From Squalus acanthias (lineage: Eukaryota), in NCBI GenBank assembly GCA_030390025.1, contig CM059453.1, positions 6,262,001 through 6,326,000 of the forward strand: a stretch of DNA of 64,000 nucleotides, read 5' to 3'. Position 1 is the first letter of the stretch. The number at the start of each line of letters is the position of its first letter. This document shows positions 26,779-64,000 of the stretch, one piece after another. A program made the position numbers and the translations under genes. The notes beneath the pieces are model-generated. The model was not told the DNA's origin. It worked only from the letters and a program-made list of their open reading frames with translations, and ran no database searches.

Positions 26779-27614
26779 TTTATATTCCTCTTTCAGTTGA
26801 CCGTACTTCAGGATGGACTGTGAGGGTGTCATGGATTGTGTCGGCAGTGAGCGGTTCATGCGCAGAGGTCCCGTGTACATTTGACCATCCCCTCAGTTGC
26901 AGTAATCCACGGTTTAAGTTCTTAAAGGGTGTTCTGATTCAGATACCCGAAGGGTCATGTTTTTCTGGAATTCCAGGGATGCAATTTGACTATAAAGGGC
27001 GAATTGAATTCACCGGCGCATTCACAAAGAAACAATGTTCCTTCCGGATAATGGACATCAGGTAGAGCGAAGAAGGTGACAATTGCATCACACTGACGAT
27101 CACCACCGCCACGAATCCTGCAGAAGAAGACTCGCCCATGTCTGAGGTCACTCTTTCGATTTCAAGTAAGTTTATTTTTAACGTGTTTATTTTGTAATTT
27201 ATATTCCATCTCCTCAGTGCCAATGAAACTTAAGATGCAAATATATCATTTTACACTTGACCTACTTCACAGGCTACAGGTTAGGGCTGGAGCATTGAAA
27301 AATTTCCAATTGTCTGTTATGTTTCGCCATGTACATATATATCGCGCTGGCAATTTTTGTAAGTAACAGAAGCTCCCTCCATTTTTCAGTTTGTAAGTGC
27401 AACTGTAGATGTTGTATTGAACCGTGCAGACCGGTGGGTCAAAATTCAATCCTTAATTGAAGTAGAAAAATCGGTTAAAGTCCGTACTTTTGAAGAGACG
27501 GTAGACGGACATGGTCTAAGCATTGGAAGGGTTTCTTGGGTGAAATCGCCCACAGGTCCCCATATCAGAACGAAAGAAAGAAAGAAAGATAGAAAGAAGG
27601 AAAGAAAGAAAGTA

Positions 27615-28770: not shown

Positions 28771-29747
28771 TTCCAAAGCTGAAAAATATTGTAAAGATAT
28801 CAGAGATTGGATGAAGATGATTATGCTGTTACAGAAAGTGCACTCCCAACCGGGCAGTAGCTCCATGTCTAACGCAATACATTTTGGTACAGAGCCGAGA
28901 CGAGTTTTAAGATATCGAATCATATGGGAAGGCTGTGACATGTCTGTAAGCTTTTCCTTAGACGCGATCATTCGGTTGGACACCCGGAGATGAAGCATCA
29001 GGAGCCCAGAGTGCACGGCGTGCCAATCCTTCCCATTCTCTCCTTCGCGTACGCTTCCACCTTAGGTGATAAATCAGCTTTAGGTTACACGGGGTGGTAG
29101 TGCTCTTCATTGCACTATCGCTCTCAGCTTCAAACAAATAAGTTAATCAACGAAGCTGAACAAAGTAATAGAGTCGGTCATTGATCAATCTTTGCCGAGG
29201 CAATCCAACTTGTCTCGGTTCGCCGGGTTAGGGAACGGAAAGACATCAATAGTTCCTATCCTTGTTCAGTGGCTCCTGCAAGTGTCCATTTGATCATCCA
29301 GAGAGGACAGGATCAGACTCGAGGCTAATTGGCCTTTCGCAAAATAGCAGATTGAGTGAGGGAGTGGAGGAACCTGACTCCAGTCAAGCGTTCAAGGTAG
29401 ACCAGGATAATATTGTGGCAAATTCTGCCAAGATGAGCTGCGAGCGTTTCCAATGATAGTAAAAACGCAGCTTTTTTCCTGGTTTTTTAAGATTTATTGC
29501 GTTTAGAACAAGAAACTGAAATTTTGGGATTCAGTAAATGCGACCTGTGCAAGTTCTGGTATTTTTCAGGTAAATTTCATATCTGCACATTCGCTCATTT
29601 CTTTGCAATGAACATATCAGTGCCCTTGAGAAAGAGTTGAAAAGTGCAGAGTGGCAGAATTAATGTCTTCGTTCTGCGTCGTCGAGTTGGATATCACTTC
29701 TCGAACGTCACTGTCGGGGTCATTCTCATAATGTTCCCTCTGCAACA

Positions 29748-32460: not shown

Positions 32461-33504
32461 CAGTCCATGACCTACACTTCGCTGTCCTTTTGCCTTTCTA
32501 TAAACAATGCATTTGTTAGATTGGATCCATTAGCGAATGGTTTTGGCTGGTATATGGACTAAAGTTCAACTCTATTCGATTACACTGGGAATACAAGTTG
32601 GAGATAATCTTCAGGAATCATTACTGGTGCCAATGCACACAACACCCAGTGCATCTCAGACCGAGTTCCTCTTTTAGTTCCCCGTTTTATAAGTGCATAA
32701 TATGAAATGGAAAATTACCAGCACTGAAATGATATTGTATTGTATGATAATAATGTACAAATACAGGACTGATTCTGAAATGGCACTGTGGTGATAGTTG
32801 TGCAGTAATAATATACAAGGTTCCATTAACACTGTTAGGATAATAATAACCTGCGAGTGCTAAACTAGCCTTGAAATGATATTTTGTGTCATTCGAATAC
32901 ACATACACAACTTGAAATGACACTCTGATAATCAGTACGAAAGACAAACTAGTTTTCAAATGTCACTGTGTTCAAATAAAGAGTAGGAATTCTAAACAGC
33001 ACGTTTAAAAGGCTTCGTTGTAGATTTTCAACTTGAGCTCGGGGTGAAATTTGGTGTTTCCGGTTGCCCAGGCGATTTAAAATCACATATTTGGACGTCC
33101 ATTAATATTAAACAAATTCCAGCAGAATACAGAGAATCGGAAGGGGGCGAAATGGAAGTGAAAGATAGTTAATCGGGGAATAGCAAAAAGAGCAGAGAAC
33201 GAGTGAACGAGAGAGGGAGAGCAAAGCGGAAGAGGAGATAGAGCGAGCAAATTGCCAACCAGAAGTCCGCAGAGAGAGGTAAGAGAGACCACACTCTCTG
33301 ACCTGCCATGAGAGGTGTGACTGGGGAGATCGAGCATTAAAATATTTGAAGCATGTACCTGATGCAATTCCATCGTAAGTTCCTGTGCCCTCATTTCTAA
33401 AGGGACCTGTCTGTCTGAACTGATCAAACTGTAATTACACCCTCCCGGAAGTTCAAGCAATGCAGCTCCACCAATCTCAGCAGGGAGAAATTACGGTGAA
33501 TCAC

Positions 33505-36500
33505 CTTTGCATATGGTACATAGGCACCAACGATATAGGTAAAAAAGGGGATGAGGTCCTAAAAGCAGAATATAGGGAGTTAGGAGGTAAATTAAAAAAT
33601 AGGACCTCAAAGGTAGAAATCTCAGGATTGCTACCAGTGCCACGTGCTAGTCAGAGTAGAAATAGGAGGATATTTCAAATGAATACGTGGCTAGAGGAAA
33701 GGTGCAAGGGGGAGGGATTCAATTTCCTGGGACATTGGAACCGGTTCTGGCGGAGGTGGGACCAGTACAAACCGGACGGTCTGCACCTGGGCAGGGCCGG
33801 GACCGCTGTCCTAGGGGGAGTGTTTGCTTGCGCTGTTGGGGAGGATTTAAACTAATGTGGCAGGGGTTTGGGAACCTGAGCAGGGAGACAGAGGAAAGCA
33901 TGTCAGGAAGGGACAGAAGGTATGGAGTAAAAGGTAAAGTGTTAAATAAGGAAAAAGCAGGAAGTAAGTGTCGCAAAACACATTTGAAAGTTCTTTATCT
34001 GAATGCACGTAGCATTCGTAACAAAATTGATGAGTTAACGGCACAAATAACTATATATGGGTATGATCTTGTGGCCATTACAGAAACATGGCTGCAGGGT
34101 AACAACGTCTGGGAATTAAATATGCCAAGGTATTTAACAATCAGGAAGTACAGGCAGGAAGGAAGGGGAGGGGGGGGGGTGGCTATGTTATTAAAGGAAG
34201 GAATCACTGTAATACAGAGAAATGATATTGGGTCAAAAGATCAGGATAATGCAACAGTTTGGGTAGAGATTAGGAATAATAAGGGGAAAAAAACACTGGT
34301 GGGCGTAGTATATAGGCCTCCTAATAGTTGCAACTCTGTTGGAAGAAGTATTAATCAGGAAATAGTTGGGGGATGTAATAAGGGAACAGCTATAATTATG
34401 GGGGATTTTAACTATCATATTAACTGGACAAATCAAATTGGGCAGGGCAGCCTTGAGGAAGAGTTTATTGAGTGTCTTAGGGATGGATTTCTTGAGCAGT
34501 ATGTAACTGATCCTACAAGGGGGCAAGCAACCTTGTAACTGGTACTGTGTAATGAGTCTGGATTAATTAATAATGTCCTAGTTAAGAATCCCCTTGGAAT
34601 GAGTTAACATAACATGGTTGAATTCCATATCCAATTAGAGGGTAAGAAGGTTGGTTCTCAAACAAGCATACTGAGCTTGAATAAAGGAGACTATGATGGT
34701 ATGAGAGCAGAATTGATTAAAGTGGACAGGAAAAAATAGATTAAAGGGTAAGACGGTACAGGAGCAGTGGTGTTCATTCAAGGAGTTATTTTACAACCTT
34801 CAAAATAAATATATTCCACTGAGGATAAAAGGGTGTAAAAGAAATGAAAGCCATCCATGGCTAAGTAAAGAAATTAAAGAAAATATCCAACTAAAAACAA
34901 GGACATATAAGGTAGCCAAAGTTAGTGGGAGGATAGAAGATTGGGAAGTCTTCAAATGACAACAAAAAGTAACTAAAGGATTGATTAAGAAAGGGAAAAT
35001 AGACTATGAAAATAAATTAGCAAAAAATATAAAAACAGATAGCAAGAGTTTCTATATTTATATAAAAAGAAAAAGGGTGGTTAAGGCAAACGTAGGTCCC
35101 TTAGAGGATGAGACCGGGAAATTAATGGTGGGAAACATGGAGATGGCAAAAATGCTGAACAAATATTTTGTTTCAGTCTTTATGGTAGAGGACACTAAGA
35201 ATATCCCAACACTGGACAAACAGGGGGCTCTAGTGGGGGAGGAGCTAAATGCGATTAAAATTACTAAGGAATTGATACTCAGTAAAATAATGGGACTCAA
35301 GGCGGATAAATCCCCTGGACCTGATGGCTTGCATCCTCGGGTCTTGAGGGAAGTGGCAGTAGCAATTGTGGATGCTTTGGTAATAATTTTCCAAAACTCC
35401 CTGAACTCAGCAAAGGTCCCGGCAGATTGGTTAACTGCTAATGTAACACCCTTATTTAAAAAGAGTTGTAGGCAGAAGGCTGGAAATTATAGACCAGTTA
35501 GCCTAACATCTGCGGTGGAAAATTTTTTGGAGTCTATTATTAAGGAGATAGTAACGGAACATTTAGATAAACATAATTTAATAGGACAAAGTCAGCATGG
35601 CTTTATGAAGGGGAAGTCATGTCTGACAAATTTGCTCGAGTTCTTTGAGGACATAACGTACAGGGTTGATAAAGGGGAAACAGTGGATGTAGTGTATTTA
35701 GACTTCAAGAAGGCATTCGACAAGGTGCCACATAAAAGATTATAACTCTAGATAAAAAATCACTGGATTGGGGGTAATATTCTGGCATGGGTGGAGGATT
35801 GGTTATCTAAGAGGAAGCAGAGAGTTGGGATAAATGGTTCATTCTCGGAAGGGCAACAGTAGCCAGTTGTGTTCCGCAGGGGTCGGTGCTGGGTCCCCAA
35901 CTCTTTACAATCTATATTAACGATTTGGAGGAGGGGACCGAGTGTAACATATCAAAGTTTGCAGAGGATACAAAGATGGGAGGGAAAGTAGAGAGTGAGG
36001 AGGACATAAAAAACCTACAAGGGGATATAGACAGGCTGGGTGAGTGGGCAGAGATTTGGCAGATGCAATACAATATTGGAAAATGTGAGGTTATGCACTT
36101 TGGTAGGAAAAATCAGAGAGCAAGTTATTATCTTAATGTCGAGAAACTGGAAAGTACTGCAGTACAAAGGGATCAGGGGGTCTCTGTGCAAGAAAATCAA
36201 AAAGTTAGTATGCAGGTGCAGCACGAGATCAAGAAAGCCAATGGAATGTTGGCTTTTATTGCTAGGGGGATAGAATATAAAAACAGGGAGGAATTGCGGC
36301 AGTTGTATAGGGTATTGGTGAGACCGCACCTGGAGTACTTCATACAGTTTTGGTGTCCATACTTAAGAAAAGACATACTTTCTCTCGAGGCAGTACAAAG
36401 AAGGTTCACTCGATTAATTCCGGGGATGAGGGGGTGGACATACGAGGAGAGGTTGAGTAGATTGGGACTCTACTCATTGGAGTTCAGAAGAATGAGAGGC

Positions 36501-36995
36501 GATCTTATTGAAACATATAAGATTGTGAAGGGGCTTGATCGGGTGGACGCGGTGAGGATGTTCCCAATGATGGGTGAAACTAGAACTAGGGGACATAATC
36601 TTAGAATAAGGGGCTCCTCTTTCAAAACTGAGATGAGGAGAAACTTTTTCACTCAGAGGCAAGTGGGTCCGTGGAATTTGCTACCCCAGGCAGCTGTGGA
36701 AGCTACTTCATTAAATAAATTTAAAACAGAAATAGACCGTTTCCTAGAAGTAAAGGGAATCAGGTGTTAAGGGGAGCGGGCTGGAAATTGGACATGAGTT
36801 TGAGTTCGGATCTGTCAAGGCCCTGTGGGTGGCGGAGCGGGCCCAGGAGCCGAGTGGCCTGGTCCTGCTCCTGCTTCTTGTGTTCTTTAGAGTTGAGGTT
36901 GGATCAGATCAGCCATGATCTCATTGAATGGCGGAGCAGGCTCGAGGGGCCGATTGGTCTGCTCCTGCTCCTATTTCTTACGTTCTTATGTACTT
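33505..36995 (+). mobile_element. Near full-length CR1 (HER1-like) LINE: ORF1 SGNH-esterase portion plus ORF2 endonuclease/RT, inactivated
   Basis: IGTNDIG...DGLHL (esterase); LNARSI, ITETWL, YRPP, GDFN (endonuclease); QHGF, YLDFKKAFDKVPH, FAEDTK (RT); several stops and frameshifts; ttcttatg tail. Confidence 0.95.
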
Positions 36996-38354: not shown

Positions 38355-38920
38355 ACTGGAGTACTGCGTACAGTTTTGGTCTCCTTATTTCAGGAGGGAT
38401 ATACTTGCATTGGAGGCAGTTCAGAGATGATTCACTAGGTTGATTCCTGGGATGAAGGGGTTGTCTTATGAGGAAAGGTTGAGCAGGTTGGACCTATACT
38501 CATTGGAGTTTAGAAGAATGAGAGGTGATCTTATTGAAACATATCAGATTCTGAGGGGGCTTGACAGTGTAGATGCATAGTTGATGTTTCCACTCGGCGG
38601 GGAATCTAGAACTAGGGGGCATAGTTTCAGAATAAGGGCTCGCCCGTTTAAAACGGAAATGAGGAGGAATTACTTCTCTCAGAGAGCCATGAATCTTTGA
38701 ATTCTCTACCCCAGAGAGCTGTGGAGGCGGAGTCATTGAATATATTCAAGGAGGAGATAGACAGATATTTGAGCTACAGGGGAGTGAAAGGTTATGGGGA
38801 GAGAGCGGGAAAGTGCAGTTGAGGCCAAGATCAGATCAGCCATGATCTTATTGAATGGCGGAGCAGGCTCCAGGGACCGAATGGCCTTCTCCTGCTCCTA
38901 TTTCTTCTGTTCTTATGTTT
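38355..38920 (+). mobile_element. CR1 LINE 3' fragment inserted at the ancestral stop codon of gene A
   Basis: ctggagtactgcgtacagttttggtctcc...ttcttatgtt tail; antisense to gene A. Confidence 0.9.
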
Positions 38921-39011
38921 AATTGGAGCATAATCGCTGTTCTTCTCATTTGGGCTATATGGTTCATTATTGCGGATGTGTGAGACATTGACAGTCACGT
39001 ACACAATCTCT

Positions 39012-39059
39012 TCATTCTGAGCAGTTTGCATCATTTGCGGGGCTCACGTGATCGTCCCT
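39012..39059 (-). CDS. Gene A last coding exon as spliced (RDDHVSPANDANCSE*); ITIM/ITSM-like motifs lie out of frame downstream
   Basis: Acceptor ttacag|; phase 0 from the previous exon gives TGA at 39014-39012. IVYVTV (39007-38990) and SDYAPI (38938-38921) are in another frame. Confidence 0.7.
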   Translation of the reverse strand, partial: RDDHVSPANDANCSE

Positions 39060-39349: not shown

Positions 39350-39428
39350 CTCTCCGTTTAGAACCTCAGTGTACACCATCGCACCACTATCGGTTTTCGG
39401 CACACATGCAGTCTCACTGCTCTTCTTC
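39350..39428 (-). CDS. Gene A cytoplasmic exon 1 (RKKSSETACVPKTDSGAMVYTEVLNGE)
   Basis: ttttttag| and |gtaagt; phase 2 to 0, consistent with the TM exon. Confidence 0.8.
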
Positions 39429-41699: not shown

Positions 41700-41793
41700 C
41701 TTTGTATCTTCAGCAGGAGCACGACTGCAATTAGTAACACAATCCCAGTGGCTCCTCCTCTTATGATGAGAAGAATTGTCCTGGAGAATATTC
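41700..41793 (-). CDS. Gene A transmembrane exon (GIFSRTILLIIRGGATGIVLLIAVVLLLKIQ)
   Basis: ttttttag| and |gtagga; hydrophobic run followed by basic residues; phase 1 to 2. Confidence 0.85.
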
Positions 41794-42596: not shown

Positions 42597-42884
42597 CCTT
42601 AGCGTGGAGCTGGTATTTACTGACAGAATCACCGTGCTCGTTTGCTGCAACACAAGAGATCAGGTTTCCGGTTCCGGTTGGGTGAGTCAATCTCAGGGAG
42701 CTCTCCATGAGGTGACTATTCACCGCCCAGGAGATGATTTCCACATCTGACCTGTCCCCAGTGTGGATTCTCCCATTGAGGCCCCACGTGATGTTTCCCG
42801 GGGGATTGGCTCTGATCCGGCAGCTACAATTCGTCCAATTCGCAGAGCTGGTGCATGTCGGGCCTGATAAAATTGTCGGTTTAT
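42597..42884 (-). CDS. Gene A membrane-proximal Ig domain exon
   Basis: DKPTILSGPTC...NCSCRIRANPPGNITW...ISCVAANEHG; 288 nt, phase 1-1. Confidence 0.88.
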
Positions 42885-43808
42885 CTAAAAAAAAAGGAAA
42901 CTTCAATAGGAAATGATCATGTAAACAGCTGTAGTTTCGAAATACAATTAAGTAATGAGTTGAACTAACCATCATAGTTCTGGTTGTTATATTTTAAGAT
43001 GAATCAGTCTATGTTGCACTAGTTCATGGCATATTATATCTTCACTTATAACATGTGAGCTCGTTAGGAAGACTTCCATATTAAATCCAATGAGTGTTCG
43101 TTCCATCAATACCTCTCCTGACAGATGTCGCGAGGGACCCTCAGACGGAGCTAGCTCAGAGATTTGATTATGTATAATATACCCACAAACGTGTCTCACA
43201 CGTCACTGTTTTAAAAGGTCAATTCATGTCAATGTTTTCACTAGGTGTACTGTGTTCAAGATCTTTATTTGTGGTGGAATGACGTGATTCTTCAATAAAC
43301 GTACGGCTAGCAAGGCAACACTTCAAAGAACCAAGTCTCGGAATATTACACTAATAACTCAAAATTAATACAAGGAACAGGAGTTGGCTTAACACAATTT
43401 ATCACACTTTTTTAGAGAGAATTTGTGCTCATCACATTGCTACAAGTCAGATCTAAGGATTGGAAAATTGTCTATTTCAGACGACAAGTATAATTTATGA
43501 ACAATTAGTTGTAGAGTAAAGGTCCCAGTAAATGTGCTTGTGTCGCAACCTCATAAATGTAAGACCTGCTGCATTTATGAGACATTGTGCCATATTCCAC
43601 TACTGTCATATTGAGCGAGAGGCCAGGTTAGTTTCCATTATTGGAGCCACCGAAGTAGTTTGCCGCTATTTTCGCGGAAGGGGTGAAACTATCCCAAAAG
43701 CATGCACATGGGCGCCTTCCCGCAAGCAGGCAAGAGAAAACTGTAATTTAATCCAGAGTTCGTGAAATGAAAGGCTACTATCTAATTGATAAATTAATAC
43801 ATACTTAC

Positions 43809-44066
43809 ATTGTACTGAAATCTGTGTGGAGCGATTTGTGGTGCCCAGGGCATTTTCAGCTATGCACCAATATTCACCGTCGTCCTCAGAACGAATGTTG
43901 CGGAATATCTGCTTTAGTTCACCAATGGATGATCTGCTGGTATCTTCACCATTTTTCACCCATCTTAAGCTGACCAGGGGTTTCCCATCGGCCGTGCAGT
44001 ATAATAATAACGAACTTCCTTCCACAGCTACTATAGAGGAGTTGACGGTTGGGATGTTCGGTCCAT
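43809..44066 (-). CDS. Gene A C2-set exon 2
   Basis: EGSSLLLYCTADGKP...W...EDDGEYWCIAENALG; 258 nt, phase 1-1. Confidence 0.92.
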
Positions 44067-44651
44067 CTGAAACAGGCGTTAATGCAAAACGTGATTGTCG
44101 AGTAAGCATTATTGAGCTCCTAATTAATTCATTATATTGGGTATGGGGATCGGGCGGGAAATTGAAGTTGAGTTCCATGATCAGCCATGATTGCCGGAGT
44201 GGCAGAGCAGGCTCGAAGGGCCGTATGGCCTACTCCTGTTCCTAATTCTTAAATTCTTATTAAGCCCAAACAGAGCTGAGATCTGATGTCATAATAACAG
44301 ATCCTAACTCGGCATGGCCTTTGTTGCTTCCATTTATGACTGACTAAACTCATAACCTGACTGGAAATTCACAGAATAAAGATTAACAATCACTTAAAAA
44401 AATATGTTGGAGGCACCATCATTGATACATGGATATGAATGATTCTAATGTAATATCACTGGTGAGAATTAGATGAGAGCCATTGCGAACCGTTGATTAT
44501 CGAAATGAGCTCTCCTGGTAAAGAGGCTGCGCTTTTCATGATGCATCCGTTGATGCAGTTCTAATCCCGAATAAATTACTTGTGTAAAAGTGCAAATTTT
44601 GAGCCCGTTGGCCGACAGGATAAGTCTGTTTACTTTAGACCGGACACTTAC

Positions 44652-44963
44652 ATTTAATCTCCAAAATAAGATTTTGTGCTGAAGGAGAAGGAATTCCATT
44701 AATTAGAATTGTGCATCCCAGAATGTTCCCGTCATGAGCAGATGATGGAGTGAAGGTCAGCACGGATGAAACTTTCCGAGATTCTGAATGTTCTTTGATC
44801 ATTCCTTCTCCTTCTTGTGTATCCCACGGAAGAGGAAGGGACACATTGTACTTAATCCACCTCAGTTGCAGGGTGCCATTCCAGCAGTTGTGTGTGATGG
44901 AACAGGTGAATCGTGCAGTTTTTCCAGCGATCAGTTCGCCATAGCTTGAAATACGTGGCGTTT
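44652..44963 (-). CDS. Gene A C2-set exon 1
   Basis: FTCSITHNC...W...SSVLTFTPSSAHDGNILGC (Siglec domain-2 signature with extra Cys); 312 nt. Confidence 0.92.
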
Positions 44964-47138
44964 CTATTAAAACGGGAGAAAACCAGCGTGTTAGGTACAT
45001 TTCAACGTTAGAACGGGCGAGTGTTGGCTTCCAGCTAAATGTGAGAAGGACGTGAAATGAAAATTACATTTAGTTCCTTTTTGTCTGCTGCGTGTTGCAA
45101 GTGTGTTCAGCACTCTGAATTACTCCTCGCAGTTGTAATGTAGTTTTATGCCTCATCGGGTAACATATGTTCCGACTTTATGTTAAACTTTAGTCGTTTT
45201 TTCTCCTAACTTATCTATATCATGGATATGATAGCTGTAGACCAGTGAACCAACGTTAACTCCTCAAATGTCACGAATATTTCATCCTCTCGTATACCTC
45301 GTTCTGCACCGGCAATTGACTATGTGATGGTGATTAATGCAGACCCAGAGAGATCTCGATTCTGTTTTCAAGAAACGTCAATATAGAACGACAATGCTCA
45401 AGACATGGAGAGACCAGACAAAGGATTGATAACACCACCGCGTGTGGGAGAAGCAGAGCAGGTTCCTCGGGTGGAAATCTGCAGAAGGCTTCTGCAGAAA
45501 TAGTATTTGTAGCCGTGGGATTTGAATGAACAAATAAATTATAACTTGAACTGATTTTCACGTTACTCAAATTTCTAATTTTTAATTAAGATCTAATTAA
45601 AAGCGGGGTAAATGAGCGCTGGATAGGGAAAGGCACGAACAAAGACTGAATTAATTCACCGCTTTTTAAGTACTCGCGACGTCAAAAGACGCTTCACCAA
45701 AAAGTTACTTGAAATATAATCAGGCAGACATTGCCGACGGTAAAACAGGAGATTATTGGAAAAGTTATTAAGATGTTTGGAATTAAGGATAAGGTAGAAA
45801 TTGTAATACAAACTGTTTAGAAGGGACGAAGCAGCGAGTCGCTGTTAAGCGCAGTTGCTCAGAATAGTTGGATCCCAGTACGGTGTCCCACAGGGCTGTC
45901 CTGTGGTTTTGCTTCTACTCACTGTGTGCATCAATAATTTGGAGAAAGGGCTAAAGAGAATGATGTCAAAATTTCCCGCAGGAATTAATTGGATTCCATC
46001 AAAATGAAAATTGGGCGGGTTGTACAATGAGAGGCGCATCCAATATCGCCAGTTTTACACCCATGCCAACCTTGCAAGTGCAACTCCCAGGAGATAACTA
46101 GAGAATTAAGCGAGTTACAAACGGATACTGGAGATATAGTAGAATGGGGATATTAGAGGCAGATATAATTTAAGGTCAGAAAATATGTGGTGGTAGATGT
46201 TAATTTGAACCGTAGACAGCTGGGAGATGTGGAAGAGCAGAGGCATTTGGAGTCAGCTTCATAAGACAGTAAAAGTAGCACCTCCAGTGGGAAAGTGTAG
46301 GAAGATGTTTCTGGAGCTCGCGGTTTAACGGCAAGAGATCAATAATATAAATTCGAGAATAGTGGAGATTCTAACGAGAACAGTAGTTAGTTCACAGTTG
46401 GAGTAAGAATGCGGGTTTTGGGCTCCAGACTACAGGAAGAATTTACTGCGGATTCGCGTAGTTTCTGGCTGGTATGATGATGTATGAATACCAAGCAAGT
46501 ATTTAATAATTGGGGCAGATCTTATTGGGCTAAAACAGACTTTGGGATGATTTGACAGAAGTTCTTAAACTTATTAAGCAACAGGACAGAGGAGATAGAG
46601 CAGACTGAAGTAGAATTTGAAATGGCCGCCCTGGTCAACACTCTCATTCCAGATAAGTCACTCATTCTAGCAACCGCCCAATTTCATTACCATTCATTTC
46701 ATTGGAAATAATAAGCTGCTGGTTTATGTGTTGTAAGTACGACCAACAACGTCAGTTTTAGGTTCAGTCAACACGTATTAATCTATCCTCATGTGGACAT
46801 TTTCAGAATCGGCTCGACAGGTGTTTGAAGGGAATTGCAATAAAGCGATATGGGAACTGAGCAGGCACATGCGATTCGGAGTGTTGCTCATGTGAAGGAC
46901 AAACAGCAACACGGACTGGCTGGGCGGAAGGGCCTGTTTTACTTTTGTAATTTCTATATACTTCTGTGTTTAGGATATCAGACATCTGCGTACCTCATCA
47001 GTATCCCTGCACCCTTTGTTTCAACTGCCCTTTGAGATCGGTCAGGGATATTATAATATTTTCCCACTTTGCACATAGGTTGATTCATACTGAAGCACTG
47101 GAGTGAAAATGTACAAAAGGAACAAAGGGAAAACTCAC

Positions 47139-47512
47139 CTAATACAGAAAGAAATGTGTGAGCACGCAGAGTGCGAAGTCCCTTAATATGCCTGGACGAA
47201 GCGTTCGCGATGAAGAGTTGGTATATACCCTCATCACTCTTCCTGATATCCTTTAGTAGGAGGTAACATTGTTTCTTTAAACACTTGAACTCAGCTCTTC
47301 CAAGATAGTTATAATGCTGCCTGAATGGTAGTTTAGAATCAAAGATAATGGGGAAACCTAGTTTACCAGGAACATGTCCCTCTTTAACCACGTCACATCA
47401 CCGATTCTCTGATAGACTGGATAATTAAACGTACACCGGATCTTTGCACATGAACCGGCCACCGCCGTCACAACTTTTGGTATCATCACAGAGAATTCAG
47501 CACTAAAAACAA
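47139..47512 (-). CDS. Gene A V-set exon (1-bp deletion at 47378-47380)
   Basis: GSCAKIRCTFNYP...TWLKR/GHVPG...GRAEF...QCYLLLKDIRKSDEGIY; aligns with 60151-60531. Confidence 0.88.
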
Positions 47513-48139
47513 CTGAGAAGAATAAATTAGACACCCTTTAATTAGCCATTCAAAATGCATTTCAGCATCTTTATCATCCATTAAAGTATTTGTTAATTGA
47601 CAAATAATCGCCATTCACAATAGCAATTAAAATATCAGTGAAGGTCTTTTCAAAATCAAGAAAAAATACGAAACAAAATCCAATCACAACACCTATTGAA
47701 ATGATCATAGGAATAACTATTTAATGGGAGATTTATGAACCGATAATATACATATTTAATACTCATCTAAAAACCGAATACATATCAACTAACATGTAAG
47801 GGAATGCCCATTAAAAATTCTCATTAAATATAGCTTAAAATATTGATCAAAATAAATATTAAACATCTATTGAATCTCCTTTGAATTACTCAATCAATAT
47901 GAAGTAAATGTTATTAAATGTGCATTACAATAAAATAATTTGAAAATCCATGTATTTAAACATTATTTGAATAGGCTGTATCCGCTATAATACAACAACA
48001 ACGCACGCGTTAAACAATCATGAAATTCCTATTTCACAAGTTCTGAAATCAATAACAAAAAAATCATTCATATTCGTTATTTTGCTGTTCCTTTTCCACA
48101 ATCACTTGCAGAAATTGTAAAAAAGCATCACAAATGTAC

Positions 48140-48182
48140 CTTCTGTCAACATTATGAGAGGCAGCAGCACGCAACTCCTCAT
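48140..48182 (-). CDS. Gene A leader exon (MRSCVLLPLIMLTE)
   Basis: gccATG, 43 nt, |gtacat donor; near-identical to 59470-59512. Confidence 0.88.
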
Positions 48183-48858
48183 GGCTCTAAACTGCTGCCG
48201 ATTTCACTCGCTAAATGAAGACCCCAATTCACAATTTACACCATTCAGATTTCAGCTTTCTTCTTTCCAGTCACTTCTTGGATTTCTTTGCTAATCAGCA
48301 TCAGACTATCGGGGAAGTTTGATTCGGTTGCTGCCAATGTGTAGGAACAGTGCTCACTCAATCAGCTCCGTTGGTGAGGTAGGCAGCTAGCACATCTTGT
48401 ACATGGGCTGCGTGTGACCGCCTGTTAAAAATATGATGTTATGGTATTTTTAACCGTTTCAAAAAATACTTAATTTCGAAACAACATCTCTCTCTCTCTC
48501 GAACAAACTCACACAAACACCAAATGTACTGTTATTTATGATATTGATATATTGGCGTCTGTGTCAGATTGGCACCGCCCACGCTTGCAGACGCCTCTGA
48601 CACACATTTCACACATATTTCGCTTTCTGGCAGCTAATACGAGATGAATGTTGGAGAGTGGTTAACTACAGTCAGTTAGGTTGCTGCAGTCTGTGAACGT
48701 GTGGTTTCGTCACCTTCTTTAAGGAGCGCTGCAATATGCATCTGTGACGTTTTAGATAGGAGCTGTTTGACAGTAAACCGTTTGACGCTGTGGTAAACAG
48801 CCTTTCTTCTAAATATTTAACTCTTTGCATTCACACTCAAGCTCAGTAATTTTGCAGA

Positions 48859-50606: not shown

Positions 50607-51397
50607 ATAAAATAGGAAGTGTGACCTTAGACCCGGAAGAAAATCCTTCTGTTGTATTCTGGGCGGTGATGATCTTCAATATGAAATAACAGTCACCTTG
50701 ATCGCACTTGCTGATGTCCTTCAACCGTAAGGAACATTGTTTCTTTACAAATTCGGCGGTGAACTGAGCTCGCCCTCCATATTTCAAGGGCACGTTATCT
50801 GAATCCCGGGAATCATAGATAATCGAGACCCCTGAGGTTCCAGGTCAGGAACCTCCTTTAACCACATACCCTGTGGACTAAGGCCAGAGGCGGGATAATC
50901 AAATGTACACGGGATCTCTGCACATGACCCGTTCACCGCCGGCACCTTCACAGACCATCGGGAACTATGGACAACTGGTGAAAAAACAGAAATTAAACAC
51001 CCATTAAACACCCATTGAAATTCGCAATATTATAGCAATTTAAACATACCCTGACCGTCAAGTTAAATACTATTAATTTAACCTTTAAACACCCACTAAC
51101 ATATTCATTAGTACATCTAATGAAATTCGTGCAATTTTCTCCAAAACTCTTTAAATTCTATTAAATATTCCATTTCAAACTAATAAATCATAGCGTAATT
51201 ATCAAATCAATCCTATATAATACATAATAAAGTTCCAAATAAAACATACATTAAATACGAACTGTGTGAATGCACAAATGATTGACTAACCGTATGTTTT
51301 GTCTAAAATATTATTATTTTGTCTGAGAAAAATTATTAAAAATGAATATTTTACCTTCGCTAAATATCCGAATGGAAATACATCTAATAATCTTCAT
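50607..51397 (-). pseudogene. Siglec-like pseudogene C (leader 51397-51355; frameshifted V-set exon 50974-50607)
   Basis: Leader MKIIRCISIRIFSE, 43 nt, with GT donor. V exon GSCAEIPCTFDYP...W / GRAQF...KKQCSLRLKDISKCDQGDCYF is 368 nt (out of frame). No C2 exons before the gene A upstream region. Confidence 0.85.
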
Positions 51398-54334
51398 GAC
51401 TGGAGGCGGTTGACGATGTAAAAATGACATAAATAGTTTTTATCTCAGATATTATTGATGTAGTTTCTGTGTTCGGTTCGCCGGTACTGAATCGAATCAC
51501 AATAATATGAGGTCAGCTGTTCTCCACCCACCAATCATTGGGAACCGTGGTAGCTCACACAGCTTTCGCCACTCCTCAAATGTCGGTGGTCTAAACTGCT
51601 GGAAATCTGGGACTCCTCAAATATAACAGTTTACATCAATGTGTGGCCCGCTGTTGCAGGATATATGAGGCTCACCAACTGCAAAATAACCCTGAGCAGA
51701 GATACATCCAGCCCCCTCAACAGCTGCAAAGATACAGGACAGGCAGGGGCACTTTAGATTGCAATATCTAAAATAGACTTCTACATCAACTTTAGACGCC
51801 TCGACTCTCAACACCCACACACATAGATATTTATCCGCCCTTGAACTGCGAGTGTTTGAAGTGTGAAGCTGTGGTTAGTCCTGTAGCCGTTGTCTGCAGA
51901 CGTGTGGGTTGATCACCTTCAGTAGTTCGGGGCACAACACGTATCTGAAATGTCAAATGTTTAATGTTTCTCAGAAAACAGTTTCAAGAGCGTAAAGTGC
52001 AATTCTTAGAAGTGACTTCAGTTCTTTATATTAGCAGTCCAGCGAGATGAAATCTGCTGAAATTAACTCATTGAAATCCCAATTGCTACAATGACGGGTT
52101 TATGAAGATTCTGACTTTAATGCTAAAACTGTGAGGTGTGACGTGAGCTTTCAGATTGGAGTGTCAATGTTGCTGGAAATAACGCGGATATTTTTATCTA
52201 ACGGAACAAATCCCTGCGAACTGCTCAGTGGGATCAAATCCTGGATACAATCGGGAACCTCATTCGCACACTGTCCAGCTTCAAGCTGGGCGCATTTGGA
52301 ATCAGATTATGGAGCAGAATTAGTTCAGATTATTTGGAAGGTGAGAGAACCGGATCACTGCTACCATTCAAAGGTTAGTAATCAATCACTACCTTAACTT
52401 ATAGATCTCAGTAAAGCACCTCGGATGAGACGCGTGCAGTTTACACAACTCACTCTGTCCCATTTTCACAATTCTAAATCTGAAATCCGTTACACTTTCC
52501 TGAGCAAATTGTTTATTTTTCTGGCGCTCACCCATTACAATATTTTGCACGTTCTATTCATACTAATTGAACTTCTCAACACAGCAAAGATATTTAATTC
52601 TCCAGGTTCTTCTGACGCACACAAGGAGTTGGTCACAGCAGCCTCATTACTCAGGACTCTTGAACATCCCGGGCACACACCCATTGAAGAACAGCAGGAA
52701 CTGTTGACAAGGCATAACAGGTCAGTCGCTGTCTTTGGGGTGAAGATGTCAGTGGACATTTTGGGTATGTAATTAATCAGAATTGAAAATGGAAGATAAT
52801 CAAATTGTTTAGTAAGGCGAGAAAGAAGAAGTCTTGACGAGACAACAGAGGCCGATATTACAGGATTAGGATCACTCGCTTACAAACCTGTTGGTACAAG
52901 TCTAGTAGAACATATAAACTATCATCAGGCTATGAGTGGAAATACATTATAAGACCTGAGGAATGTGTAAATAATGCAGAGGATGATAATTGTCCGAGAG
53001 GGAAACTGCGTGTGGAGCTCTGAATGTGACTATTTAAGCCTTATATTATGCATACGCACTAAATTGAACATTCAGTCCATTGCGATAACAGTTTCCCTGA
53101 AATATCGCTGGGTTCCGGAATTCGGGAAAGGGAACGTTGCCTTCTCGGGAGTGCCCCGTGATTAATCCACTCCCTCAAGGATAAAAATAAGTGAATGAGA
53201 ATCAATGAGGGTGAATTTCACACAGGCAAGATGCAGCGTCCTTGGGATCAATGGCCATTCCTCTTTTAATATACTCATCTTCTTATTATTCACTAGAATA
53301 GGATTTCAAAATCACTGATGAAATGATGACATATCCAATGAGAGCCCATTCGCTGTTGGCTGTCATGTCTGCGATTGATGTCACTTCCGGTGAGACCACA
53401 GATTCCCCCAGCCTTCCCTCTTTCTAATTACACTTCTTTAAACCCCCCTTTTAACTGCTACTGTCAACCCCTTAATAAAACCAATATTTATCCACATTGC
53501 TACAGCTCCTGTTCACCCCCTTCATGATCCGCCTTAGATCTCCATTTTAAACCCCAATTAGATCACTTTTAATCCCCCTGTGTATACCCGTTTGAAATCG
53601 CAGTTGCTCACCTTTTTTTATCCCCTTTTAATTCCCTTATTTGAGAGAGAGAGGGAGGAAGTGAGAGAGAGAGAGAGAGAAAGCCAGAGGGTGAATTACA
53701 TTTACATAATTAAATAGAAACAAAAGCCAGTATGTTTATGCTCCTGATGAGCCTTCTTCCACCTTACCTCTTCTAACCCTTCTATGTATTTCTCCCACAT
53801 GTACCTGTCTACCTTCCCCTTAAATGTACCTGTGTTATTCGCCTCAACCACTCCCTGCGGTAGCAAGTTTCACATTTTCACCACGCTGGGTAATGAAGCT
53901 TCTACTGAATCTCGACTGGATTTATTGATGACCTGAATAGATTTATGACACCGAGATTTGGAATCCCCACAAATAGGGATACCTTCTTTACATCTACCCT
54001 CAAAAACCCTATCGTAATTTTCAAGGCCTCTATAAGGCCACAGCTCAGCCTTCTCGTTTTCTAGAGAAAGAAGAGAGAAGAGAAGTCAAAATGTGTGAGA
54101 GACAGTCTGACAGAGAAAGTCTGAGCAAGCAAGATGGAATATGTGGTAAGATCTAGGGTCCAGTCTGGTTTTACCGAGCACTTCAGGGATGTGACTGCGT
54201 ATACAGGGCCCAGTTTTTGTATATTAAACAAATAAGAGGTGAAAATCATCATTGGGACAACCATTTTTTTGGCGGTTTGAGGGGGGTTGAGATCCAGGGC
54301 CTAGTTTGTTTTGTTCTTCTGTTCAGATTGTGGA

Positions 54335-54545
54335 CCCAGTTTGGGATTACTGACTAGTTTAGGGATGTGTGTTCAGAGCCAGGTCTCAGTTGGGTTTTAC
54401 TGACTAGTTTAGGAATGTGTGTTCAGACCCAGGTCTCAGTTGGGCTTTACTGACAAGTTTAAGGGTGTGTGTTCAGACAAAGACTCAGCCTGGCTTTACT
54501 GACTAGTTTAGGGATGTGTGTTCAGACCCAGGTCTCAGATTGCTT
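54335..54545. repeat. ~49-bp tandem repeat (TTACTGACTAGTTTAGGGATGTGTGTTCAGACCCAGGTCTCAGTTGGG), 4-5 copies
   Basis: Directly visible; degenerate reverse-complement relatives at 9170-9310, 13390-13555 and 15890-16090. Confidence 0.85.
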
Positions 54546-55059
54546 TAACAATAAAATAAGCCATAATGTCTGGTCAATCCCAGAGTGGCGGTTGGTGCAA
54601 TGCACCCTGCTCAATGAAACTCCACACAAGGCCCAGTTTGCTTTGAGGCCGAACGTTGAAATGATGTGTGTTCAAATTCGGGGCTCAGTTTGGGTTTAAC
54701 GCAGACAGTTCATATGGAGCAGGCTCAGTTTCTCACTCGTTGCGGCTGCACCGAGTTGGGATTGTTTACACGGTGTGCCAGTATAGCAACAGAGGGGAGG
54801 TGTGAAGTGCTGGGTTCTATTCAGCGCCTCTGTAGTTGTGGTTACTGCAGCACACAGCACACTGCTATCTATGACGTTCTTCGGTGTGAATTATTCTGTA
54901 CAATTGAACCAGAATGAGTTTATTTGCGGTCAGGCTACATCCGCTTAGAGAGAAAGCTGAATTTTTAAAGTACCTGTTTTGTTTTCAGCTCCACGTTTAA
55001 ACTGTAATTCAAATTGAAATCTCAGAACATCCATCTTCACAATATGTGGCATCTGAATC

Positions 55060-58620: not shown

Positions 58621-59469
58621 GACCACACTGATCTGTTTGTGCGGAGCTATTGCTTCAATCAATTTTATCTGTGTCTGTTACAGCAATATTTGTATTTACG
58701 ACAGGAACCTTCAGTCCATTTCACACGTCCCAGACCTCATAACTAAATTTCAATGAAAGCACTGCAACAAAGAGGGTGGCATTTTTGTTAAGTTCTGTCA
58801 AATTACGGAGCTTGAGTGTGAATGTACAGAGTTAAATTATTAGAAGAAAGGCTGCTTACCACAGCGTCAAACGGTTTACTGTCAAACAGCCCTATCTAAG
58901 ACGTCACAGATGCATATTGGAGTGCTCATTAACGAAGGGGACGAAACCACACGTCTGCAGACTGCAGCAAGCTAACTAACTGCAGTGACACCTCTCCAAC
59001 ATTCAGCTCGTATTAGCTGCCAGGAGGCGGAATATGTGTGAAATGTGATTCAGAGGCGTCTGCAAGCGTGGGCGGTGCCATTCTGACACAGACGCCAATA
59101 TATCAATATCATAAATAACAGTACATTTGGTGTTTGTGTGAGTTTGTTCGAGAGAGAGAGAGATGTTGTTTCTGTATTAAGTATTCTTTTGCAACGGTTA
59201 AAAATACCATAACATCATATTGTGTAACAGGCGGTCACACGCAGCTCATGTACAAGATGTGTTAGCTGCCTACCTCATCAACGGAGCTGATTGAGTGAGC
59301 ACTGTTCCTGCAGATAGGTAGGAACCGAATCGGACTTCCCCGATAGTCTGATCCTGATTAGCAAAGAAATCCAAGATGTGACTGGAAAGAAGAATGCTGA
59401 AATCTGAATGGTGTTTATTGTGAACTGGGTTCTTCATTTTGCGAGTGAAATCGGCAGCAGTTTCCAGCC

Positions 59470-59512
59470 ATGAGGAGTTCCGTGCTGCTGCCTCTCATAA
59501 TGTTGACAGAAG
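59470..59512 (+). CDS. Siglec-like gene B leader exon (MRSSVLLPLIMLTE)
   Basis: gccATG, 43 nt, |gtacat donor. Confidence 0.9.
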
Positions 59513-60150
59513 GTACATTTCTGCTTTTTTTTTTACAATTTCAGCAAGTGATTTCTATCTTGTGGGAAAGGAACAGGAAAATAACGATTATGAATGATTT
59601 TTTTGTTATTGATTTCAGAACTTGTGAAATAGGAATTTCATGATTGTTTAACTTGTGCGTTATTGTTGTTTTATAGCGTTTGTAGCCTACTCAAATAATA
59701 TTTAAATACTGTGATTTTCAAGTTATTTTTATTATAATGCACATTTAATATCATTTACTTCATATTGATTGAGTGATTCCAAGGAGATTCAATAGATGTT
59801 TAATATTTATTTCGATCAATATTTTAATGTATATTTGATGATAATTTTTATTGGGCGTTCGCTTACTTGTTAGTGGATATGTATTCGTTTTTTAGATGAG
59901 TATTAAATATGTATATTACCGATTCATAAATCTCCTATCAAATAGGTATTCCTATGGCCATTTCAATAGGTGTTGTGATTGGAAATTTTTCAGTATTTTT
60001 TTCTTGATTTTGAAAAGACCTTCACTGATATTTTAATTGCTATTGTGATGGGCGATAATTTGTCAATTAGCAAATACTTTAATGGATGATAAAGATGCTG
60101 AAATGCATTTTGAATGGCTAATTAAAAAGTGTCTAATTTATTTTTCTCAG

Positions 60151-60531
60151 TTGTTTTTAGTGCTGAATTCGCTCTGCTGATGCCAAAAGTTGTGTCGGCG
60201 GTGGCCGGTACATGTGCAGAGATCCGGTGTACGTTTGATTGTCCAGACTTTCGGGGAATCGCGGGTGTGACGTGGTCAAAGAGGGGACCTGGTTCTGGTA
60301 ACCCCGGCTTCTCCATTATCTATGATTCTAAATATCCATACGGGCAGCATTATAACTATAGTGGAAGAGCTGAGTTCACGGGCAAAATTGCAAAGAAACA
60401 ATGTTCCCTCCTGCTAAAGGATATCAGGAAGAGTGATGAGGGTACATACCAACTCAGCATCGAGATCGCTTCGGACAGGTCTACTAATAGACGTCGCACT
60501 CTGCGTACTGACGTATTTCTTTCTGTTTTAG
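60151..60531 (+). CDS. Gene B V-set exon (intact)
   Basis: 381 nt, phase 1-1; GTCAEIRCTF...W...GRAEFTG...QCSLLLKDIRKSDEGTY Siglec V-set cysteine pattern. Confidence 0.93.
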
Positions 60532-62722
60532 GTGAGTTTTCCATTTGTTCCTTTTGTACATTTTCACTCCAGTGCTTCAGTATGATTCAACCTATGTGCA
60601 AAGTGGCAAGTATTAAAATGTCCCTGACCGATCTCAAAGGGTAGTTGAAACATAGGGTGCAGGGATACTGATAAGGGACGCAGATGTCTGATATCCTAAA
60701 CACAGAAGTATATTGAAATTACAAGAGTAAAACAGGCCCTTCGGCCAGCCAGTCCGTGTTGCTGTTTGTCCTTCACATGTGCAACACTCCGAATCGCATG
60801 TGAATGCTCAGTTCCCATATCCCTTTATTGCAATTCCCTTCAAACACCTGTCGAGCCTATTCTGAAAACGTCCAAATGAGGATAGATTAGTACTTGTTGA
60901 CTGAACCTAAAACTGACGTTGTAGGTCGTACTTACAATACATAAACCAGCAGCTCATTATTTCCAATGAAATGAAAGGTAATTAAACTAGGGCGGTTGCT
61001 AGAATGGGTGATCTATCTGGAGTGAGAGATTTGACCAGGGCGGCCAGTTCATATTCTACTTAAGTCTGCTTCTATCTCCTCTGTCCCGTTGCTTAATAAG
61101 TTTAAGCACTTCTGTTCAATCATCACAAAATCAGTTTTAAACTAATTAGATCTGCCCCAATTTTTATATATTTTCTTGTCATTTAAACTTCCTCATACCA
61201 GCCAGAAACTACGCGAATCCGCCCTAAATCCTTTCTATAAACTGGAGCCCAATACCCGCACTCTTACTCCAACTGTGAGCTAACTACTGCTCTCGTTCGA
61301 ATCTCCACTATTCTCGAATTTATATTATTGATCTCTTGCCATTAAACCCAGAGCTCCAGAAACATCATCCTACGCTTTCCCACATGAGCTGCTGCTTTTA
61401 CTGTCTCATGAACCTGACCCCAAATTCCTCTGCACTTCCACATCTCCCAGCTTCCTACGGTTCAAATGTAAATCTATTGCCTCATATTTTCTGACCTTCA
61501 ATTATATCTGCCTCTTATCTCCCCATTCTACTATTTCTCCAGTATCCGTTTGTAACTCGCTTTAGTTCTCTAGTTCTCTAGCCTGGGAGTTGTACTTGCA
61601 AGGTTGGCATGGGTGTCAAACTGGCGATATTGGACGCGCCTCTCATTATACACCTCGCCCATTTTTCATTTTGTTGGAATCCAATTAATTCCTGCCGGGA
61701 AATTTTTACATAATTCTCTTTAGCGCATAATCCAAATTATTGATGCACCCAGTGAATAGAAGCAATCCCACAGGACAACACTGTGGGACACCGTACTGGG
61801 ATCCAACTATTCTTAGCAACTGCGGTGAACAGCGATTCGCTGCATCGTCACTTCTAAGCAGTTTATATTGCAATTTCTACCTAATCCTTAATTCCAAAAC
61901 TCTTAATATCTTCTCCAATAATCTGCTGTATTTACCGTCGGCAATGGCTGCTTGATTACATTTCAAGTTACTTTTTGGTGAAGCGTCTTTTGACGTCGCG
62001 AGTACTTAAAAAGCGTTGAATTAATGCAGTCTTTGTTCGTGCCTTTCCCTATCCAGCGCTCATTTACCCGCTTTTAATTAGATCTTAATTAAAAATTAGA
62101 TATTTCAATAACGTGAAAATCAGTTCAAGTTATGATTTCTTTGATCATTCCAATCCCACGGCTACAAATGCTATTTCTGCTGAAGCCTTCTTCAGATTGA
62201 CACTTGAGGAACCTGCTCTGCTTCTCCCACAGAAGGTGGTTTTAACCGTCCTTTCTCTGGTCTGTCCATGTCTTGAGCATTGTCGTTCGATATTGACGTT
62301 TCTTGACAACAGAATCGAGATCTCTCTGGTTCTGCATTAATCTCCATCACATAGGCAATTGCTGGTGCCGAACGAGGTATACGAGAGGATGAAATACTCG
62401 TGACATTTGAGGAGTTAACGTTAATTCTAAGTCCAGCGTGCAAAATTTGTTCACTGGACAATATCCATGATACAAATCATTTGGAGATATAACGACTAAT
62501 GTTTAAATAAGTGTTGCCATATTTTACCCGATGAGGCATAAAACTGCATTACAACTGCGAGGAGTAATTCAGAATGGTGACACACTTGCAACACGTGGCA
62601 GAGAAAAATTAACAAAATTTGATTTTCTTGTTATTTCTTTCACAGATTTAATTGTAAGCCATCGATCACCCGTTTTAACCCTGAAATGTACCTAACAAGC
62701 TGGTTTTCTCCCGTTTTTATAG

Positions 62723-63034
62723 AAAAGCCAGAGATTTCAGGTTCTGGGGAATTGATCGCTGGACAAACTGCACGATTGACCTGTTCCGTCACGCACAACT
62801 GCCCGGATGGCAACCTGAAACTGAAGTGGATTAATTACAATGTGTCCCTTCCTCCCCCAATGGATACTCAAAATGGAGCAGAAATTAAAAATGAAAGTTC
62901 AGGTTCTCGGAAAGTTTCATCCGTCATCATCTTCACACCATCATCTGCTCATGACGGGAAAATTCTGGGATGCTCAATTCTAATTGATGGTATCCCAACT
63001 CCTTCAGCACAAAATCTTACCTTGGAGATTGAAG
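62723..63034 (+). CDS. Gene B C2-set exon 1
   Basis: 312 nt; LTCSVTHNCP...SSVIIFTPSSAHDGKILGC. Confidence 0.93.
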
Positions 63035-63621
63035 GTAAGTGTCCTGTCTAAAGTAAACAGATTTATCCTATCGGACAACCGGCTCCAAATTTTCACTTTT
63101 ACCACAAGTAATTTATCAGGGGTTAGAACTGCATCAACGGATGCATCATGAAAAGCTCAGCCTCTGTACCAGGAGAGCTCACTTCGATAATCAATGGTTC
63201 GGAATGGCTCTCATCTAATTCTCATCAGTCAGATTACATTAGAAACATTCATATCCATGAATCAATGATGCTGCCTCCAACAGATATTTTAATGTGATTG
63301 TTAATCTTTATTCTATGAACTTCCAGTCAGGTTCTGAGTTTAGTCAGTCATAAATGGAAGAAACAAAGGCCATGCCGAGTTACGATCTGAAGCTCGGACA
63401 CCAGATCTCAGCTCTGGTTGGGCTTAATAAAAACTTAAGATTTAGGAAAATGACTTCGCCATACGGCCCATTCGAGCCTGCACCGCCACTCCGGCAAACT
63501 TGTCTGATCATCGAACTCAACACCAATTTCCCGTCCGATCCCCATACCCAATACAATGAATTAATGAAGAACTCAATTATGCTTATTCGACAATCACGTT
63601 TTGCATTAACGCCTGTTTCAG

Positions 63622-63879
63622 ATGGACTGGAAATCCCAACCGTCAACTCCTCTATAGTAGCTGTGGAAGGAAGTTCATTATTATTATACTGCACGGCCTG
63701 TGGGAAACCCCTGGTCAGTTTAAGATTTGTGAAAAATGGTGAAGAGATGAGCAAATCATCCACCGGTGAACTAAAGCAGTTATTCCCCAGCATTCGTTCT
63801 GAAGACGACGGTGAATATTGGTGCATAGCTGAAAATGCTGTGGGCACCAAAAACCGCTCCACACAGATTTCTGTACAAT
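63622..63879 (+). CDS. Gene B C2-set exon 2 (gene continues beyond the window)
   Basis: 258 nt; EGSSLLLYC...EDDGEYWCIAENAVG; |gtaagt donor. Confidence 0.93.
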
Positions 63880-64000
63880 GTAAGTATGCATGAATCTTCA
63901 ATTAGATAGTAGCCTTTCATTTCAAGAATTCTGCATTAAATTCCAATTTTCTCTTGCCTGCTTGCTGGAAGGCCCCCGTGTGCATGAGTTCTGGATAGTT

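Follow-up and report, generated by a model that had tools for sequence, protein, structure and literature searches.

An essential arginine on the F strand of the V-set domain is the mark of a canonical Siglec lectin. MAG (Siglec-4), a conserved receptor present as a single copy, is Arg-dependent. In several primate Siglecs, namely human Siglec-XII, ape Siglec-5/14, and Siglec-17P, this residue has been replaced (PMC6288428, PMC7379906; accessible sections). Several papers (10.64898/2026.08.25.746757, PMC8455134, PMC9316650, PMC13358205, PMC10122656) document recent losses of the Arg in primates, sites that work without it, and ligands other than sialic acid. Siglec-5/14 bind non-sialylated microbial proteins, as the accessible text of PMC13358205 states. 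Arg-less Siglecs have been known chiefly from recent accidental losses in primates. For the teleosts studied, fish genomes without CD33-related Siglecs are described in the accessible portion of PMC7226832. A shark group of Arg-less Siglecs was undescribed in the literature searched, which included few subscription papers and no supplements. Cao 2009 and Bornhofft 2018, reportedly comparative surveys of Siglec evolution, may mention it. Here, we describe a window, that is, the whole stretch of 64,000 nucleotides of Squalus acanthias DNA that was analyzed, in which gene B and its broken twin A would represent a branch with a single ancient loss of this arginine that was then retained.

Gene content of the window

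The window is mostly 40–46% GC and contains many LINE remnants as well as exons of Ig-superfamily genes. Five paralogue traces, including one inverted duplicate, were recognized in the 64 kb (Table 1), a pattern of clustered, rapidly duplicating genes with pseudogenes like that of CD33-related Siglecs. Only one of the four V exons, that of B, is intact; those of A, C, and D are broken. No flanking marker gene for CD33r synteny was found in the 64-kb window. A tree holding A, B, C, and D together was rejected (p-AU 1.3e-5), so at most two independent lineages are present. Four independent functional Arg losses are ruled out by this value and by the lesions in A, C, and D.

Table 1. Siglec-like features of the window (P numbers denote database proteins)
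Feature	Position	Strand	Remarks
Pseudogene D V exon, orphan	26797..27166	+	1-nt and 11-nt deletions, TAG
Orphan decayed last exon, fifth paralogue (P0161-like)	29527..29740	-	Both tail tyrosines lost, two stops
Gene A last exon	38900..39059	-	IVYVTV (ITIM) and DYAPI
Gene A first cytoplasmic exon	39350..39428	-	Tyr motif MVYTEV
Gene A transmembrane (TM) exon	41700..41793	-	
Gene A membrane-proximal Ig exon	42597..42884	-	MAG domain-5 type
A/B inverted duplicate	43687..48858	-	Versus 58794-64000, 88.4% over 5218 nt
Gene A domain-3 Ig exon	43809..44066	-	Open
Gene A C2-set exon	44652..44963	-	Open
Gene A V-set exon	47139..47512	-	Frameshifted, 1-nt deletion in G run near 47385; Phe at Arg site
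Gene A signal-peptide exon	48140..48182	-	
Pseudogene C V exon	50607..50974	-	1-nt deletion, in-frame TGA, 12-nt deletion
Pseudogene C signal-peptide exon	51355..51397	-	
Gene B signal-peptide exon	59470..59512	+	ATG to GT donor; start of P0001 matches
Gene B V-set exon	60151..60531	+	Intact, AG/GT splice sites, Siglec-type Cys 21/26/84
Ser codon AGC at sialic-acid-binding Arg position of B	60456..60458	+	
F–G loop and G strand of B, five Arg	60477..60506	+	Fastest-changing part, A vs B
Gene B C2-set exon (domain 2)	62723..63034	+	Cys aligns with inter-domain Cys of MAG
Gene B domain-3 Ig exon	63622..63879	+	Core Trp to Phe, extra Cys

In gene B, all four exons that precede the window end are open and have canonical splice sites; the rest of the gene, with its putative TM and tail exons, lies beyond 64000. 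The V exon matches the V-set (1e-13) and Ig_CD22 domains. An additional cysteine, Cys30 (60240–60242, plus strand), is found in the V domain, and B carries two extra cysteines overall.

The exon set of gene A is complete and includes signal peptide, V, three further Ig, TM, and two tail exons. A 6-nt deletion in its V exon takes out a Gly that is invariant in 13/13 relatives; overall, a Gly and a Ser, both invariant in all 13, are missing from this exon. In the last exon, a stop precedes the ITIM in all three frames from the apparent acceptor. A, C, and D have each lost one base from the purine run that follows the Trp-Leu-Lys codons (near 47385, 50855, and 26928), although A is not kin to C or D, and a slippage hotspot, conversion, or recurrent assembly error are candidate causes. 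The frameshift of gene A may itself be an assembly error, for which the shared missing base and the 13 one-base indels in 3380 nt of A/B introns speak, but the gene bears further damage. An Arg is located at the outer edge of the gene A TM helix (41700–41793, minus strand), alongside the ITIMs. An activating receptor acting via a TM basic residue was considered and rejected; A, P0001, and P0003 have an Arg or Lys at this edge, which P0008, P0013, and P0006 lack.

For C and D, no C2 exon was found in the window. In both, the Tyr of DxGxY is gone as well, and the absence of Arg thus accompanies general decay. The C V exon is 61% identical to the Arg-bearing Heptranchias P0162 and P0155, and P0162 reads YYFR. 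C and D fall among family domains outside the A/B branch, where 10/16 database V domains retain Arg. Their codons at the Arg site, ATA in C and ACA in D, are each one change from AGA, and we infer that they derive from it by that change. C and D appear to be debris of Arg-bearing paralogues outside the A/B subfamily, in which Arg was lost by decay. The orphan tail exon, which abuts a 24-bp tandem array, shares 54% identity with Heterodontus P0161 across 70 aa.

Direct repeats at 1–991 and 4599–5590 (92.9% identical) flank minus-strand ORFs of 175–219 aa without a Pfam match and, with these ORFs, form an LTR-like element. A LINE at 33424–36887 (plus strand), presumably of the CR1-like class, has a GDSL/esterase ORF1, an endonuclease, and a broken reverse transcriptase. 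Tandem arrays occupy 30857–32372 (69-bp units), 29745–30198 (24 bp), and 54337–54547 (50 bp). Within the intron preceding D, a 183-bp stretch that is 88% self-complementary (26136–26318) is possibly a MITE. A 1.6-kb inverted similarity of 71% between 18262–19859 and 51678–53288, the second copy of which ends about 280 bp upstream of C exon 1, may be a duplicated promoter region.

Siglec fold and the F-strand position

The sequence-only reading placed the F-strand motif at DEGTYQLS in B (60435–60458, plus), DEGIYQLF in A (47235–47212, minus), DQGDCYFI in C (50703–50680, minus), and EEGDNCIT in D (27069–27092, plus), and all four positions were confirmed. A gap-free phmmer alignment of DEGTYQLSIEI in B with DSGTYNFRFEI in mouse sialoadhesin (E 8.5e-10, 28% identity) places the Ser of B at sialoadhesin Arg97; the corresponding codon in A is TTC. 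The reading had counted four V-set domains without the arginine. Its absence from all four copies stands, but four working domains do not, as B alone is intact.

The Siglec-type cysteine pattern was also found as described, with Cys 21, 26, and 84 (B numbering) retained in 4/4 copies and the F-strand Cys absent from 4/4. In B, Cys26 and Cys84 form the B–E intra-sheet pair, and Leu101 takes the place of the F-strand Cys, which is the structural signature of a Siglec. Cys21 and a domain-2 Cys aligned with that of MAG would provide the inter-domain disulphide. In P0006 and P0008, domain 2 is missing from the annotation and Asp replaces Cys21, a matched loss of this disulphide. The AlphaFold2 model of the B V domain (pLDDT 85.8) is structurally closest to sialoadhesin (Z 17.5, rmsd 1.9, 111 residues aligned) and next closest to MAG. 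C2-set domains follow the V domain in a type I membrane protein, as seen from the A exons and full-length relatives. PILR, which has a single V domain, no inter-domain Cys, and a conserved Arg, was rejected as an identity because several Ig domains and Cys21 are present and Arg is absent, and because its Z of 15.3 is below those of sialoadhesin and MAG. Both its fold and its ancestry make B a Siglec, but it lacks the mark of a canonical lectin, having Ser in place of the essential Arg.

A family profile gave MAG as the best match (E 6e-77, over domains 1–3 and the membrane-proximal domain), and the next matches among Siglecs were Siglec-8 (E 9e-44), CD22, and Siglec-5 (E 3e-32). At least one ITIM pattern occurs in 9/13 branch proteins, two of the 13 being without a TM and two having short tails. 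The CD33-related combination of an ITIM with a distal ITIM-like motif was likewise found, and such motifs are also present in the gene A tail exons. The receptors thus pair a MAG-like ectodomain with a tail, and with behaviour as a gene cluster, of CD33-related-like type.

Relatives and age of the Arg loss

Homologue searches returned 1, 6, and 28 proteins (25 of the 28 from sharks or rays), and a wider search returned 323, the 150 best-scoring of which were examined. All named close relatives of the window genes come from sharks and rays, and an atlas search with P0001 returned Siglec/MAG-like clusters only. A tree of 62 V domains contained a 33-row family of elasmobranch type. The trees omit P0004, which has Ile at the Arg position but a garbled N-terminus, as well as P0136, P0153, any V domain that scored lower than the top 28 outgroup rows, and those family members that lack a V domain (P0158, P0159, P0163, and P0165).

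A and B group with 12 database V domains (support 99/93) from Heptranchias (3), Heterodontus (2), Pristiophorus, Scyliorhinus canicula, Mobula birostris, and 4 further proteins. Surveyed across these relatives, the arginine is absent from all 14 branch members. The 12 database domains have Ile (7), Ser (2), Thr (2), or Leu (1) instead, which with A and B gives Ile 7, Ser 3, Thr 2, Leu 1, and Phe 1. The sister of the branch, P0017, keeps Arg. A Siglec-fold subfamily without Arg, as the sequence-only reading proposed, therefore holds for A and B, whose database relatives (12/12) are also without it, but C and D are not members. Outside the 33-row family, 23/29 rows retain Arg, so Arg loss is not rare among the Siglec-like domains of the 62-row set.

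The branch was recovered when residues 100–120 were removed (92/81, or 99/99 with P0017 added), and the other group then ceased to be resolved as a clade. In a C2-domain tree, from which P0017 is absent for want of a C2, all 11 branch members having this domain, ray included, fall on one side (93/95). A placement of the ray-containing sub-branch outside on V alone was not rejected (p-AU 0.128). From these trees, the A/B branch appears to have lost the F-strand Arg once, and since the C2 tree groups all 11 members, the loss predates the squalomorph/galeomorph shark split and probably the shark–ray split as well. Sharks and rays separated about 250–300 million years ago.

A single origin of all 22 Arg-less rows in a 38-row set was rejected (p-AU 1.2e-4), and the 38-row tree forces at least 4 separate Arg losses. 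Further separate losses are seen in open-frame members of the Arg-bearing group, P0156, P0157, P0051, P0018, P0026, and P0161 (Thr, Ala, Lys), including a three-member Scyliorhinus set.

The F–G hairpin and selection between A and B

The introns of A and B differ at 10.6% of 3380 sites. For the V exon, dN is 0.211 and dS is 0.079, giving an omega of 2.67 (95% CI of dN-dS 0.045–0.221; Fisher p 0.019). The F–G hairpin (residues 100–120) has 14 replacement and 0 silent differences (Fisher p 0.013), and its replacement rate also departs from the intron rate (p 2.5e-4). CpG was ruled out as the source of the replacement excess. V has 47 A/B differences, of which 17 arose in A, 7 arose in B, and 23 are unpolarised. 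Most of the selection signal (17/24 polarised changes) therefore falls on A, which is broken. In the C2 exon, omega is 0.82 with silent and replacement rates both raised, which may reflect gene conversion. In domain 3, omega is 0.67 and the replacement rate is not below the intron rate (p 0.48). Purifying selection between A and B was not evident from C2 or domain 3, and constraint in domain 3 was not significant. Coming from one gene pair, this selection evidence is thin.

The basic stretches RSTNRRRTLR (60477–60506, plus) in B and RHIKGLRTLR (47193–47164, minus) in A are located where the sequence-only reading had put them, and of the four copies only A and B have them. Within residues 100–120, Lys and Arg number 5 in B, 4 in A, and 4 in P0001, while three branch members have none and Arg-bearing relatives have 1–5. 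The net charge of this segment ranges from -3 to +4 and is above +1 in 3/14 branch members only (A +4, B +2, P0001 +2).

Proposed function and alternatives

The window belongs to a birth-and-death cluster of elasmobranch MAG/CD33-related-Siglec-like receptors. The likeliest reading, with a probability of about one half, is that these are inhibitory Siglec-fold proteins that use the F–G face for non-sialic, probably protein, ligands and signal through ITIMs. Such type I receptors would consist of a signal peptide, a V-set domain, one to three more Ig domains, a TM helix, and a tail with up to three Tyr motifs. The canonical salt bridge to sialic acid should be unable to form without the Arg, and the F–G face would bind a non-sialic ligand, most likely a protein, such as a marker of self or a surface protein by which a microbe takes advantage of the receptor. 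Engagement would then allow the ITIMs to recruit SH2-domain phosphatases, and leukocyte activation would be damped. The redirection of the subfamily to other ligands, already put forward in the sequence-only reading, may reasonably be inferred and is helped by the F–G replacement excess.

It is unlikely, though far from negligible, that binding of sialic acid or of sulphated sialosides persists in the branch via a moved or second site, either at G-strand Arg114/115/118 or at the V/C2 interface. B has Arg at 113, 114, 115, and 118, and among the 14 branch members position 115 is Arg or Lys in 8 and position 116 is Thr in 9. Counted back from the aligned C-terminal ends, residues 114–116 of B would correspond to sialoadhesin 105–107, which we take to be the sugar-binding G-strand edge. 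The modeled strands (F 97–106, G 114–125) are compatible with more than one register; at the candidate positions for the glycerol-packing aromatic of the G strand, B has Arg114 and Arg115, and five relatives have Tyr114. Precedents are a G-strand contact of R127 with the carboxylate in Siglec-10 (10.1101/2025.06.10.658867, accessible part) and, in Siglec-6, binding of sialylated glycolipids without the canonical Arg through an Arg122-independent site around Arg92 (PMC10122656, accessible part), the counterpart of which, Arg72, is present in 13/14 branch members. However, the column table of the 14 members contains no invariant substitute Arg, no basic residue of the G strand is invariant, and 6/14 have none at 115. 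Siglec-10 R119A is without binding despite R127, and Arg72 is an ordinary V-set structural Arg that, in the available text on Siglec-6, is conserved in all Siglecs and used in this way by Siglec-6 only.

Another, improbable view is that Arg was dropped to escape pathogen sialic-acid mimicry, with tonic or clustering signalling and no dedicated new ligand. This is the published reading for Siglec-XII (PMC13358205, accessible part), neither dimerisation of Siglec-10 nor inhibition by it depends on its Arg (10.1101/2025.06.10.658867, accessible part), and the repeated Arg losses in the 38-row tree also suit it. Against it, a contact surface is suggested by the concentration of replacements in the F–G hairpin and by the length of time for which a folded V domain has been kept.

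Equally improbable is that all four copies, even B, are inactive or on the way to inactivation, with the missing Arg a matter of plain decay. Three of four V exons are broken, a fifth remnant lies nearby, purifying selection is not evident between A and B, and B carries odd substitutions; for C and D, with codons one step from AGA, decay is a suitable account. For B, decay is opposed by its four open exons with canonical splice sites, by an omega of 2.7 where a value near 1 is expected, and by the annotated or predicted open-frame relatives of A and B, 12/12 of which are also without Arg and mostly have Ile, from a codon of which AGC and TTC are each one change away. Very improbable is the idea, also raised in the sequence-only reading, that a basic F–G patch makes the subfamily a binder of polyanions (heparan sulphate, nucleic acid, LPS), since despite the Lys/Arg counts of B, A, and P0001 a conserved patch is contradicted by the charges above and by Arg-bearing relatives that are equally basic, so that such binding could hold for B alone, not for the whole branch.

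Inhibitory receptors with an F–G face turned to protein ligands, the reading that we prefer, could be part of a larger and more tentative picture. An elasmobranch CD33-related-like inhibitory cluster may possibly have divided, before sharks and rays diverged, into one arm that binds sialic acid and another that is permanently without Arg. The F–G face of the latter would be a variable protein-recognition site under selection driven by pathogens, and this arm a Siglec-derived counterpart of KIR/LILR/SIRP-type self sensors.

Retention of the fold and ITIMs, but not of Arg, in a branch that spans several orders of sharks and probably also rays would indicate a lasting sugar-independent role of the Siglec scaffold. 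The branch also offers matched natural pairs, Arg-bearing P0162 or P0022 versus Arg-less P0002, P0003, and B, for work on Siglec V-domain ligands. The findings suggest that Siglec-like clusters of expanded inhibitory type arose before the tetrapods did, and that it is unsafe to name these shark genes 'sialic acid-binding lectin' automatically.

Comparison with known systems

The direct relatives of the window genes are the NCBI shark proteins P0001, P0002, P0003, P0005, P0008, and P0013, whose V domains are 41–51% identical and have also lost Arg; their names, 'Siglec-8/12/13-like' and 'MAG-like', are automatic. Likeness to MAG (Siglec-4) includes the best full-length profile match, the V-set fold (Z 16.5), and the inter-domain Cys pair. 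In contrast to MAG, the shark branch is multi-copy, fast-changing, and Arg-less, with 2–4 Ig domains and ITIM tails. A MAG orthologue, with five Ig domains, Arg118, strong conservation, and a single copy, was rejected, as A has four Ig exons and no Arg and is multi-copy. Sialoadhesin (Siglec-1) domain 1 is the closest solved Siglec V domain to B by sequence and structure (Z 17.5), but B has Ser for Arg97 and no long C2 stalk, and the shark receptors have a signalling tail.

The CD33-related Siglecs (Siglec-5, -8, -10, and CD33) share with the locus a cluster with inverted duplicates and pseudogenes, a variable Ig number, an ITIM with a terminal EYAxI-type motif, and a fast V domain. Unlike them, the shark branch is Arg-less, and no mid-membrane Lys/Arg activating partner was seen in it; the likeness described here is one of features. 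The Arg-less primate Siglecs (human Siglec-XII, ape Siglec-5/14, and Siglec-17P) resemble the branch in having a Siglec fold with the essential Arg replaced. Whereas the primate losses are recent, single-gene or polymorphic, and often on the way to a pseudogene, the shark branch has one loss common to five shark and ray genera, with open frames.
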